From NCBI GenBank assembly GCA_036574205.1, contig JAINCQ010000040.1:32001-96000 (forward strand): a DNA stretch of 64,000 bases. The letters run 5' to 3'. Below the pieces are notes generated by a model. That model did not search any database, was not told the origin of the DNA, and saw only the letters and a list, made by a program, of their open reading frames with translations. The translations under genes and the position numbers were made by a program. The number at the start of each line of letters is the position of its first letter. Positions within the stretch are counted from its first letter, which is position 1. Below, one piece after another: positions 4,768 to 17,672 of this stretch. This stretch comes from Elusimicrobiota bacterium (GTDB taxonomy: Bacteria > Elusimicrobiota > Elusimicrobia > Elusimicrobiales > UBA9959).

Positions 4768-4903
4768 TTCCCCCTTAAATTTCCTCACCCCAACCCTCTC
4801 CAAAAAAGGAGAGGGAATTTGTGTAGCAGAAAGATGGAGGCTCTTTAAAATAGAAAATGGCATAGGCGAGTGTCAAAATCCCTTCCCCCTTGATGGGGGA
4901 AGG
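4768..4903. repeat. REP-like palindromic elements (CCTCACCCCAACCCTCTCC-AAAAAA-GGAGAGGG type, plus a related 9-bp hairpin)
   Basis: 4768-4815 matches 16639-16685; 4881-4903 is the perfect hairpin CCTTCCCCC-TTGAT-GGGGGAAGG. Confidence 0.8.
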
Positions 4904-4919
4904 TGAAGGATGAGTGTAA

Positions 4920-4970
4920 AAAAAGGAGAGGGGACATAGCAGTTAAACCGTCTAAGGAAGGTAAAACCAG
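4920..4970. repeat. Intergenic repeat module C, copy 1
   Basis: 47/51 nt identical to 16673-16723. Confidence 0.9.
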
Positions 4971-14817: not shown

Positions 14818-16236
14818 ATGATAACAATTAATAATTTAAACCCAAATTTAAGAAAAGCGCAATATGCCGTGCGTGGCAAAATACTTCAACGGGCTTATGA
14901 ACTTGAAAAAAAAGGGAGAAAAATAATTTATTGCAATATAGGAAATCCTCAGGCTTTAAAACAAAAACCTATTACATATGTCAGGCAACTTTTAGCTCTT
15001 ACTGAATACCCATCTCTAATAGACAATCAAAAAAGAGGACTTTTTTTTAATGATGTAATAAAAAAAGCAAAACAAATATTGAAAGAAAATCCAAATGGAC
15101 TTGGAGCCTATACCCAAAGCGAAGGAATGCCCTTTATTAGAAAATCTGTGGCTGAATTTATAAAAAAGCGTGATACAATAGATGCTACTCCAGAGAGGAT
15201 AATTTTAACAGATGGGGCTTCAAAAGGAATTCAGGCAGTTTTTACCCTTTTAATAAAAAATTCAAACTCAGGCTTTATGATCCCGATTCCTCAGTATCCC
15301 CTTTATAGCGCTACAATAGCATTATATGGAGCAAAACAAATAAATTACTATTTAGACGAAGATAAACACTGGGAACTTAATGAGAATGAACTAAAATCAA
15401 GCATTAATGAGGCAGTTAAAAATAAAATAGAACCAGTTGCTATAGTGGTTATAAATCCAGGCAATCCAACAGGGGCTGTTCTTTCAAAAGAAAACATAAA
15501 AATGATAATAAACTTTGCAAGGAAATATAATCTTTCAATACTGGCAGATGAAGTTTATCAAGAAAATATATATAGTTCCAAACATTCCTTTCATTCTTTT
15601 GCTAAAGTAATGTCGGAGATGAAAATAACAGACGTTCCATTATTCAGTTTTCATTCAACCTCAAAAGGCTTTTTTGGTGAATGTGGACATAGAGGTGGAT
15701 ATCTTGAAACAAGAAATGTAGGAGATGATGTATATTATGAAATAATAAAACTTCAATCCATAGGGCTTTGCGCAAATACAGCAGGTCAAATTGTTACTTA
15801 TGCAATGGTCAATCCACCTCAAAAAAATGAAGATAGTTATGAGTTATACATGAAAGAGAAAAATTCAATACTTTCAGAACTTAAGAAAAAAGCTGAAATA
15901 CTGGGGGAGGAATTAAATAAAATAGAAGGGGTTTCCCTTAAAATACCATATGGTGCAATGTATGCTTTTGTAAAAATAGACTTACCCCAACCAAAGGATA
16001 TTAATTTTAAAAATATGACTCAAAAAGAGATTGTTGAGTATGAATCAAAAAGAGATTTTGATTACTGCCTTAATCTGCTTGAAGAAACAGGCATATGCGT
16101 GGTCCCGGGGTCTGGATTTGGTCAGAAACCTCATACATATCACTTCAGAACTACATTTTTGCCGCCATTAGAGGAAATAAAGTATTTTGTAAAAAAATTT
16201 AAAAACTTTCACTTTAATTATTTAAAAAAAATATAA
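14818..16236 (+). CDS. Alanine aminotransferase (eukaryote-like AlaAT/GPT subfamily)
   Basis: QYAVRG, CNIGNPQ, PIPQYPLYSA, NPGNPTG, HSTSKGFFGECGHRGGY, VVPGSGFGQ..TYHFRTTFLP. Confidence 0.88.
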   Translation: MITINNLNPNLRKAQYAVRGKILQRAYELEKKGRKIIYCNIGNPQALKQKPITYVRQLLALTEYPSLIDNQKRGLFFNDVIKKAKQILKENPNGLGAYTQSEGMPFIRKSVAEFIKKRDTIDATPERIILTDGASKGIQAVFTLLIKNSNSGFMIPIPQYPLYSATIALYGAKQINYYLDEDKHWELNENELKSSINEAVKNKIEPVAIVVINPGNPTGAVLSKENIKMIINFARKYNLSILADEVYQENIYSSKHSFHSFAKVMSEMKITDVPLFSFHSTSKGFFGECGHRGGYLETRNVGDDVYYEIIKLQSIGLCANTAGQIVTYAMVNPPQKNEDSYELYMKEKNSILSELKKKAEILGEELNKIEGVSLKIPYGAMYAFVKIDLPQPKDINFKNMTQKEIVEYESKRDFDYCLNLLEETGICVVPGSGFGQKPHTYHFRTTFLPPLEEIKYFVKKFKNFHFNYLKKI

Positions 16237-16272
16237 CAAATTAGTTTCTAAATAAGGTAAAATTTATTTAAT

Positions 16273-16360
16273 GGGCTGGTGGCGGAATTGGTAGACGCGA
16301 CGGACTTAAAATCCGTTGGCTGATTAAACAGCCGTGCGGGTTCGAGTCCCGCCCTGCCCA
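16273..16360 (+). tRNA. tRNA-Leu (anticodon TAA), CCA end not encoded
   Basis: Cloverleaf: D arm GGCGGAATTGGTAGACGC, anticodon arm ACGGA-CTTAAAA-TCCGT, long variable arm GGCTG/CAGCC, T arm GCGGG-TTCGAGT-CCCGC, discriminator A. Confidence 0.96.
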
Positions 16361-16373
16361 CTGCTGGTACTAA

Positions 16374-16611
16374 GTCATGGCGGTAAGCCATGACGTGGGT
16401 GAGGACTGCCTTTAGAGCGAAACCTCAAATGGTTTTGCGTGCAGTCCGCAAGGCCGCAGTTCGCCCTGGGCATACAGGCGAACGAGGCGGGGTCGCGCAA
16501 AGCCCGCCAGGCTTATGCGTGACTCGAAAGCCCGCAGCAAAACTTGGGCAATACAGTTTTGCGAGGGGCGGCCCGCAAAAAATTTTGCGGTTAGCAAAAT
16601 TTATTTGTGGG
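16374..16611 (+). ncRNA. GC-rich multi-hairpin structured element downstream of tRNA-Leu (unclassified ncRNA or ssDNA element)
   Basis: Six consecutive hairpins found by eye; two share flanks and loop but have different, fully pairing stems; strand and RNA nature are inferred. Confidence 0.6.
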
Positions 16612-16630
16612 AGAATTCCTTTGACATATT

Positions 16631-16795
16631 AAAATCTCTTCCCCCTTAACTCTTCTCACCCTAACCATCTCCAAAAAGGAGAGGGGATATGGCAGTTAAA
16701 CCGTCTAAGGAAGATAAAATCAGTTTTTCTTTGGCTTAAGAAAACAATTATCCACAGTTTAATTATGGCCGTGGAAAATTAGTGGATGTTGTTTT
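16631..16795. repeat. Intergenic repeat modules B-C-A, copy 2
   Basis: Matches 4768-4815, 4920-4970 and 4648-4701, in a different order. Confidence 0.9.
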
Positions 16796-17672
16796 ATGGC
16801 TGACTGTTCTTATAAAACTGGCCAATATGTTTCTGATATTTTGCAAAAATATTTTTAAATTTAAGAAAATCACTAAATTTTTTAATAAAGTATGAACTTA
16901 TTAGAGAAAATCCAAAAAGGCAAATAATTGTAGCACCTGTAGGAGTATCCAGTTTAACTGACAGAAAAATTCCAGCTGACATTATTAACAATCCTGAAAT
17001 CCAGGAAAATATTACTCTTTGTTTTATCGTTGAAAAGAATATAATAGACATAGCAGCTGGTATTATTAAAAAATTGAAAACAAGAAAAACTCCTGCAACT
17101 TCAACTGAACTTGTTACCACCATTCCAAACAAAACATAGAATAAAAAATCCCAGAAACGAATATTTAAGGATTTTTCGGCTTTTTGTGGCTCAAAAGAAA
17201 TCATTATAAACTTTTCTCTGAAGATATAGTGCAGTATACCTATGAAAGAATAAAGAAGGGCAGTTTTAATTATCTGGGGCCAGGAAACAAAAAGTATGTT
17301 TCCTACCAGCATCTCCTTTAAATGTTCAGCCTCTTTTGGCATTCTATCAAGCAATAAAACACTTAAAGCTGCGCTAACTACATATACTATTCCTATTATT
17401 GCCTCCTGTGGAATTTCCTTTATCTTTTTAGCTCTGGAAAAAGAAAAAATAAATGCCCCAATAAGAGTAAAGGAAAAAGATGTGATATATGAACCTAAAC
17501 TGTGAAGCTGAAAACCCAATAGTATCCCAAATATAGCTCCACATGCAGCAAGCTGTGCTAAAGCTAAATCAACAAATATAACACTCCTTTTAAGTATATG
17601 AAGACCTAAGTAAGAATGTATACCTATAAGTATAGTTGAAATAACAAAAGCTGGTAGAATTATTTCAATCAT
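16794..17672 (-). CDS. Mn/Zn ABC-3 family (ZnuB-like) permease
   Basis: Polytopic membrane protein; GLHILKRSVIFVDLALAQLAACG, EAIIGIVY, AGVFLVFNFLIIPA; start at 17672 after GGAGG. Confidence 0.88.
   Translation of the reverse strand: MIEIILPAFVISTILIGIHSYLGLHILKRSVIFVDLALAQLAACGAIFGILLGFQLHSLGSYITSFSFTLIGAFIFSFSRAKKIKEIPQEAIIGIVYVVSAALSVLLLDRMPKEAEHLKEMLVGNILFVSWPQIIKTALLYSFIGILHYIFREKFIMISFEPQKAEKSLNIRFWDFLFYVLFGMVVTSSVEVAGVFLVFNFLIIPAAMSIIFFSTIKQRVIFSWISGLLIMSAGIFLSVKLDTPTGATIICLFGFSLISSYFIKKFSDFLKFKNIFAKYQKHIGQFYKNSQP

Follow-up and report, generated by a model that had tools for sequence, protein, structure and literature searches.

What is the GC-rich block that directly follows a tRNA-Leu(UAA) gene in this Elusimicrobiota genome? 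The window (the whole 64,000-nt stretch of DNA that was analysed) carries an intact tRNA-Leu(UAA) gene at ~16273-16361 on the plus strand (ARAGORN; Rfam tRNA, 59.6 bits), with the hairpin block immediately 3' of it. The original prediction described six consecutive hairpins, H1 to H6 (16374-16394, 16403-16447, 16454-16487, 16490-16525, 16532-16566 and 16572-16611), and offered three options for the block: an unclassified non-coding RNA, a non-autonomous element targeting tRNA genes, or a signal in single-stranded DNA. The minimum free energy (MFE) fold of 16362-16625 yields the same six stem-loops, including H1 (GTCATGGC-GGTAA-GCCATGAC), and the suggested likeness between the loops of H1 (GC-GGTAA-GC) and H6 (GC-GGTTA-GC) is present. 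The plus-strand fold reaches -125.6 kcal/mol (z = -7.27), with none of 200 dinucleotide shuffles as stable, and the minus strand of the same interval is less stable (-103.2 kcal/mol, z = -5.11), in keeping with the claim that G-T pairs favor folding of one strand. The block is also as markedly GC-rich as predicted, with a G+C fraction of 0.57-0.65 across 16300-16550 (100-nt windows) versus ~0.2-0.37 in the flanks and 0.314 genome-wide. In the acceptor stem of the tRNA itself, the Rfam alignment flags one non-standard pair, which we read as U5 opposite U68.

The block had been said to resemble no recognizable RNA class, and searches against Rfam 15 agree: at the gathering threshold on the whole window and at a permissive setting on 15500-17500 only tRNA is found, the best matches inside the block staying below 19 bits. 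Among 12 loci of relatives, only tRNAs and a fluoride riboswitch score above threshold, none of them on the two repeat modules described below. A scan of 16100-16950 for promoter and terminator consensus sequences returned zero sites. In public RNA runs (the best sharing 5% of sampled words; four assembled), contigs cover only the conserved part of the tRNA (~16271-16322) and carry other organisms' sequence.

The block belongs to a multicopy family. With 16362-16625 as the query against the window's own assembly (G000; 1.85 Mb, 43 contigs, 95% complete), 46 BLAST matches cluster into 26 loci, 21 of which have a tRNA directly upstream on the same strand (22 tRNA genes) and the remaining five of which abut contig ends; contig-end matches lie at the end of C1, on C16 and C17, and at both ends of C30. 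ARAGORN finds 43 tRNA genes in this genome, and 22 of these are followed on the same strand by an array built from two modules, A and B. Profile searches (nhmmer) recover 30 copies of A, 32 of B and 127 of a third repeat, C; all A and B matches fall in such tRNA-oriented arrays or at contig ends. Module A often occurs as two tandem copies, and repeat C follows B at some loci. The A/B units are 130-400 nt long and contain no open reading frame (ORF). Two loci of this genome differ in kind. Behind tRNA-Gly(CCC) on C31 (34000-34950) stand two tandem 56-nt mini-units, each made up of a 32-nt insert, which opens with the anticodon arm in reverse complement (GGGAAGCTCT), and a subsequent copy of the last 24 tRNA nucleotides. 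The small contig C30 (3008 nt) has A/B arrays of tRNA-Asn on both sides and carries ORFs of 523 and 226 amino acids, which by eye, from their translations, look like a putative restriction-modification pair.

Comparison of the arrays resolves the window's copy into a mosaic of separable modules, namely trailer plus H1, A (H2-H4) and B (H5-H6), all on the plus strand. A conserved trailer, (C)TGCTGGTACTAA(G), occupies 16361-16373; its family consensus, TGCTKKNNCTAAG, compiled from the flanks of the 43 tRNA genes and from the arrays, opens every array of G000 right after the discriminator base. Hairpin H1 with the following GTGGG spans 16374-16399, and across loci its stem varies in sequence and retains its pairing. 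Module A (125 nt, 16399-16523; covariance model R2, 138.5 bits) is followed by a TCGAA-AG junction at 16524-16530, delimited by comparing units that begin with B with A-B units and by the flanks of A in three other genomes (G024, G022 and G013). Module B (~90 nt, 16524-16612; covariance model R1, 107.8 bits) reaches past the predicted end of the block at 16611; next come a tRNA 3'-end copy in decay, GAATTCCTTTGACATAT (16613-16629), and a decayed piece of repeat C (16646-16692; nhmmer, E = 4.9e-7). Repeat C consists of palindromic REP-like hairpins (for example CCTTCCCCCTTGATGGGGGAAGG and CCTCTCC-AAAAA-GGAGAGG) on both strands; it is dispersed genome-wide independently of tRNAs and within the window is also found at 4775-4923.

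Hairpins H3 and H5 had been read as one motif with different, complementary stems, and CCGCAG-stem-loop-stem-CGAGG(C/G)GG is indeed found in both. The accompanying interpretation, covariation within one locus, has to be abandoned, as the two are paralogous motifs from two different repeat modules; modules A and B are therefore related, since H3 of A and H5 of B have CCGCAG-hairpin-CGAGGNGG in common. Covariation among homologs, a check proposed with the original prediction, is seen in each module, with 0 of 500 shuffles reaching the observed score. In the alignment of module A (28 sequences from 7 genomes, 22 of them from G000 and 6 from others), pairing holds in 96.8% of cells, compensatory change has affected 23 of the 34 pairs and a single G-U pair never varies; changes between genera are extensive. 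For module B (28 full copies), 97.2% of cells pair, compared with 36-53% in slid controls, and 10 of 22 pairs are compensatory. Two positions of B are mostly G-U, and such pairs occur on this strand only, as strand-specific folding predicts. These counts overstate the number of independent events because copies within one genome are related.

The flanks of the modules are derived from the target tRNA. In the 14 B units that stand directly after tRNA, trailer and H1, the 14 nt ahead of the core match, in reverse complement, the cognate tRNA's T-loop and T-stem (positions 64 to 54). The exact match, counted from position 54, averages 9.2 nt and reaches at least 9 nt in 11 of the 14 units, against a mean of 4.9 nt and a 16% share of such long matches when non-cognate tRNAs are used. 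A direct copy of the T-arm at this place can be rejected: the non-palindromic T-loops TTCGAGT and TTCAAAT appear as ACTCGAA and ATTTGAA, and the tmRNA T-loop TGCGAAT, also non-palindromic, is likewise reverse-complemented. On its other side the B core is followed by local tRNA sequence copied in direct orientation (positions 57 to 73), a copy that often continues through trailer and H1. Because its 3' end is duplicated in this way, the tRNA gene stays whole. Identity to local positions 57-73 is 17/17 in 15 of the 27 B copies with a tRNA on the same contig. Direct duplications in G000 extend from 17 to ~74 nt (matching runs of ~54-74 nt under a loose stop rule), and in relatives they reach, by eye, ~100 nt or more (L050 and L143). 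Whole-unit tandem duplication was considered as the origin of the long perfect repeats and rejected, since on C3 and C37 the B cores differ strongly and the repeat is (nearly) perfect. In seven arrays with two B units the duplication proximal to the tRNA is the better kept in four, tied in two and worse in one, and distal copies of the tRNA end decay.

Module A is flanked in a related manner. Reading the arrays by eye, we find that the 3-4 nt ahead of A correspond in reverse complement to positions 61-64 of the local T-stem: GAGG at tRNA-Arg(TCG), AAGG at Trp, CGGG at Asp and Glu(CTC), and GGG at Leu(UAA) in the window. From this T-stem complement before A and the TCGAA after it, it follows that A sits inside the antisense T-loop, ahead of B. 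In the window, TCGAA (within 16524-16530) is the remnant of an antisense T-loop copy (reverse complement of positions 58-54), with module A lodged between GGG and this remnant. The window's own copy is without the diagnostic duplication, as GAATTCCTTTGACATAT has 7/17 identity to the local tRNA end; it resembles instead the tRNA-Leu(GAG) end of a B-C composite found elsewhere in the genome, and stretches homologous to it follow B on contigs C1, C5, C7, C10, C31, C36 and C42. The window's copy is probably an old unit, and recombination between arrays would have brought in, or written over it, a block of the form A-B-(Leu-GAG end)-C.

Comparison of orthologous loci, another of the checks proposed at the outset, reveals presence/absence differences. 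Located through an upstream aminotransferase gene, the tRNA-Leu(UAA) site is empty in G010, which belongs to another genus, carries a B unit in the sister species G001, and carries A plus B in G000. In G001 the tRNA is followed by the trailer, H1, GGGACTCGAA, B and a perfect GAGTCCCGCCCTGCCCA, a 17-nt copy of positions 57-73, and then by unique DNA, making a unit that is complete without cargo. Among 21 B loci examined in G001, B lies behind 17 tRNA genes and, at one locus, behind the tmRNA gene. For seven of these tRNAs (Met, Pro-GGG, Val-TAC, Val-CAC, Arg-CCT, Arg-GCG and Thr-CGT) the site in G000 is unoccupied. At the tmRNA locus (L129, C21:48250-49400 of G001; ARAGORN tag ANSYEMAWANA), the antisense flank ATTCGCA mirrors the unusual tmRNA T-loop TGCGAAT, and the direct flank copies the tmRNA 3' end; the contig with the tmRNA gene of G000 (a contig whose label is ambiguous) has no A or B profile match. 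Four further loci of G001 (L131, L133, L138 and L139) hold an additional ~85-nt module, TGGACTTTGCTT...GCCACAGTAG, nested in B between H5 and H6, and in several arrays it sits in the second unit. One unit of this species (L135, C32:10700-11850) is complete, has a tRNA-Ser-type direct arm and lies in the middle of a 1151-nt stretch that contains no tRNA gene; it may be a copy that moved together with its arms, or a rearrangement.

The modules extend well beyond this genus. The B covariance model matches 25 of 151 sampled Elusimicrobiota genomes, strongly in G000 and G001 (at least 27 copies each) and G010 (5), and weakly (28-41 bits) in 22 genomes of five other families. Nearly all of the weak-match loci examined (23 of 24) lie 80-250 nt behind a same-strand tRNA, mostly tRNA-Ser, as in family f2, where B follows tRNA-Ser in 16 of 45 genomes, which are small. 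These distant units keep the antisense-core-direct layout, in the order antisense 72-66, H1, antisense 65-54, core, direct 57-73. Several open with a short copy of the 5' acceptor strand of the tRNA (read in L046, L050, L057, L060, L063 and L064), the place of which is taken by the constant trailer in the genus of G000. A distant unit of this kind can adopt a fold that mimics either the acceptor/T-stem "top half" of its tRNA or the duplex target. Other cores with the same layout occur at L045 and L065.

Module A is distributed differently. Among the matches listed for the 151 genomes, strong ones occur only in G000 (22), G013 (13) and G012 (5), and in the sister species G001 the A model gives only cross-matches of 34-38 bits on B. 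In G024, G022 and G013, a direct partial tRNA copy harbors A in its antisense T-loop, and A is hence antisense to the tRNA. G013 and G012 have many A copies far from tRNAs, one of which (L106) is flanked by a ~56-nt direct repeat. Module copy number among relatives ranges from 0 to at least 27, with different modules multiplied in different genomes. Three loci of G013 show A in unusual surroundings. At L105 a copy is lodged within a B-like core behind tRNA-Val(CAC) and adjoins the fluoride riboswitch (379-457; 54.2 bits, gathering score 34). At L108 and L114, the A-like copies have a variant 3' strand with GGAGG at its end and stand a few bases before the ATG of an ORF, a position in which the repeat may supply or mask a ribosome-binding site.

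Copies also occur on viral contigs. A degenerate motif of the B module of the G000 genus has zero matches in the viral contigs of IMG/VR, and the f2-type B motif is found there in four stretches on three contigs, with partial tRNA-Ser ends and a phage MuF gene as neighbors, so phages may carry units between cells. No integrase lies within 1.5 kb of these f2-type copies. At L140, L141, L142 and L143, B-like units stand by partial tRNA-Ser 3' ends behind a small gene resembling the C-terminal part of NrdD. Two of them, L142 and L143, are ~9 kb apart on one IMG/VR contig; the direct arm of L142 ends after AAATCC and is followed by the phage MuF gene, and the CCTCCCTCTCCG end absent from L142 is present in L143, as if integration had taken place into the pseudo-tRNA arm of the unit.

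We propose that the block is an old composite array of non-coding, non-autonomous mobile modules directed at the T-arm of tRNA genes, and of tmRNA in G001, an explanation to which we assign a probability of about 60%. Among the options of the original prediction, the tRNA-targeted non-autonomous element fits best, given a multicopy family strictly behind tRNAs, target-derived flanks, presence or absence differing between species and module expansion specific to each genome; the notion of one six-hairpin RNA unit finds no support in a mosaic of modules. Insertion would proceed through a single-stranded form, DNA or RNA, with the hairpins recognized by an enzyme acting in trans. The joint would lie in the T-loop, given a direct copy that begins with position 57 and an antisense copy whose last position is 54. 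In one conceivable scheme, a staggered break is filled in and the T-loop is copied by fold-back; another, by analogy with phage CTX, is a folded single-strand att site that would be recombined by the XerC/XerD-like recombinases of the cell. Arrays would then grow by repeated insertion at the restored target, the most recent unit being the one closest to the tRNA. The chemistry of insertion is conjecture because an antisense copy of the target is without precedent in ordinary transposition. In the sequences examined, neither a free nor a circular or excised form was observed. More tentatively, the modules could constitute a new class of non-coding mobile element that finds its target in the T-loop of a tRNA or tmRNA gene, leaves an antisense T-loop copy, rebuilds the 3' end and uses a folded single strand with a host housekeeping enzyme (Xer-type or other), the resulting hairpin mimicking a tRNA top half or duplex target; as one joint proposition this has, in our judgment, a minority chance of being right.

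Few candidate enzymes are encoded in the genome of G000. In this 95% complete assembly there is no match to RVT_1 (reverse transcriptase), TnpB-type proteins (PF07282), IS110 transposases or serine recombinases/resolvases. Its only two tyrosine recombinases score best as XerC and XerD, and its single Cas1 belongs to a type II CRISPR system, beside cas2 and a cas9-like fragment. Three RayT-like HUH proteins score 51-73 bits, below the family cut-off of 80. Their genes are packed tightly between other genes without flanking repeats and, across 41 genomes, do not track B: G010 has five strong B copies and no RayT-like gene, while several such genes occur in many genomes that lack B.

A cellular RNA function would also be compatible with the deep conservation of structure, the fixed orientation and the persistence of the modules in small genomes of 1.2-1.7 Mb. 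The modules could be functional structured RNAs released from tRNA co-transcripts, in which antisense arm, core and direct end together mimic a tRNA top half, H1 replacing nucleotides 8-48 and the B domain sitting in the T-loop; excision by RNase P and RNase Z would be possible, and the product could act as a decoy, sponge or regulator of the cognate tRNA. An orientation that is always that of the tRNA, G-U pairs confined to the sense strand, covariation in both modules and the persistence of B behind tRNA-Ser in many small f2 genomes (16/45) all speak for such a role, and the copy of the acceptor 5' strand in units of other families would complete an acceptor stem. This copy is replaced by the constant trailer in the genus of G000, however, distal tRNA-end copies decay, and the A copies of other genera are antisense to the tRNA or remote from tRNA genes. 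With copy numbers from 0 to at least 27 among relatives and orthologous tRNA loci empty in G010 and in G000, we regard this explanation as rather unlikely when taken on its own; mobile modules and tRNA-mimicking RNAs are not mutually exclusive.

Two further explanations dispense with mobility of the modules themselves. If the arrays were att-site scars of larger, integrase-bearing elements using tRNA T-loops, the modules would be conserved element ends, and a duplication from T-loop to tRNA 3' end is what T-loop-targeting tyrosine integrases leave behind. The f2-type B motif on three IMG/VR contigs by partial tRNA-Ser ends and a phage MuF gene, and the putative restriction-modification island between arrays at tRNA-Asn, are compatible with this origin. 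It is nevertheless improbable in view of the same 90-125-nt modules behind 22 different tRNAs of G000 with flanks matched to each, of units complete without cargo, such as that at tRNA-Leu(UAA) of G001, and of integrases limited to the XerC-/XerD-like pair in G000 and missing within 1.5 kb of the viral copies. Alternatively, replication slippage, template switching and gene conversion at tRNA-gene hairpins might have generated the arrays locally with no dedicated mobility. Tandem A-A units, perfect duplications (matching runs of ~54-56 nt under the loose stop rule, 51-53 nt by eye) and the transfer of the B-(Leu-GAG end)-C composite to further tRNA loci have this character, and template-switch correction of quasi-palindromes is a known process. 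Such local events leave unexplained the same cores at many unrelated tRNA loci, at tmRNA and in several families, as well as the A copies away from tRNAs in G013 and G012, and we consider them very improbable as the sole cause. Mobile modules directed to the T-arm remain our preferred reading.

How do such modules compare with known systems? Tyrosine integrases of prophages and islands that target T-loops make partial tRNA duplications (attL/attR), as reportedly described by Williams in 2002. Like the islands at tRNA genes, the modules have a direct repeat from T-loop to 3' end, leave the gene intact and form tandem arrays by repeated insertion, and the direct repeat of the tRNA 3' end is present in 15 of 27 B copies and at Leu(UAA) of G001. 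The modules differ in being non-coding and only 90-250 nt long, with no element-encoded integrase, one core family for at least 22 tRNAs and an extra antisense copy of the T-arm. Tandem islands at ssrA have been described in Dehalococcoides (PMC3146451).

A folded single-stranded attP of phage CTX, an element exploiting XerCD, was reportedly described by Val et al. in 2005. The resemblance lies in an inverted arm, a loop of ~90 nt and a direct arm that mimic a duplex target, in strand specificity, and in the fact that host tyrosine recombinases would suffice. The modules differ from CTX in that the target is the tRNA T-arm rather than dif, the units are ~150 nt without genes, and the arms change with each tRNA. 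In casposon-type insertion, the Cas1 integrase belongs to no CRISPR system and the duplication made at a tRNA 3' end measures 14-15 bp; here the sole Cas1 is that of the type II CRISPR system and the duplication varies in length.

Several families of small repeats share some of these features. REP, BIME and REPIN elements are short GC-rich hairpin repeats tied to RAYT HUH transposases, and they resemble the modules as GC-rich, hairpin-forming, strand-specific intergenic repeats with compensatory changes in stems; RayT-like genes are also present in G000. The modules, by contrast, are larger and multi-helix, bound to the tRNA T-arm and bordered by target-derived flanks, and the repeats neither flank the RayT-like genes nor co-occur with them. 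MITEs and pneumococcal BOX elements are likewise non-autonomous, modular, multicopy repeats, and the modules share with them the habit of breaking assemblies at contig ends. Unlike MITEs, the modules have no short fixed target duplication and no matching insertion sequence (IS); the duplication is variable and starts at position 57, the arms that could pass for "terminal inverted repeats" are copied from the end of the target tRNA itself, and no transposase family is found besides the RayT-like proteins. The PATEs and omega-RNAs of IS200/IS605 go with TnpA and/or TnpB and leave no target duplication; relatedness to them finds no support in a genome with no PF07282, with Y1 matches that are RayT-like rather than TnpA, and with long duplications.

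The nearest comparisons on the RNA side are with tRNA-like RNAs, such as the tRNA-like domain of tmRNA and the bacterial Y RNA YrlA, and with the trailer RNA 3'ETS-leuZ. The modules share with these the possibility of an RNA that is trailer-encoded or mimics a tRNA, and a mimic of acceptor and T-stem is possible in the copies of other families, several of which have the acceptor 5' copy; none in the genus of G000 has it, and the core stands in place of the T-loop. Unlike YrlA, the modules are multicopy, polymorphic between species and without a partner gene, and the Rfam YrlA match of 17.3 bits (gathering score 69) covers only the real T-arm. In Methanopyrus kandleri, an 18-nt palindromic motif follows about every second tRNA gene at a distance of ~10 bp and is reported to be species-specific (PMC5217627); it resembles the modules as a hairpin-forming motif directly behind roughly half of tRNA genes, and differs from them in that neither tRNA-end duplications nor larger modules are reported in the portion of that paper available to us.

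No description of the A/B element was found in the full-text literature, with subscription journals outside the scope of that search, and the modules look like an undescribed kind of tRNA-targeting mobile DNA. tRNA genes are classic landing sites of large, integrase-bearing elements; here they receive tiny non-coding modules without an enzyme of their own. To our knowledge, no described pathway of transposition or integration predicts a target that is copied in both orientations. At a practical level, the arrays break assemblies, mask the 3' flanks of tRNA genes and can be mistaken for novel non-coding RNA genes. Should the modules prove to be functional RNAs, they would form a new family of tRNA-mimicking RNAs in one-to-one correspondence with their tRNAs. 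The mechanism of insertion, once solved, could reveal a new form of site-specific DNA insertion guided by the fold of a nucleic acid, and could explain the recurrent tRNA-end duplications in several uncultured phyla.
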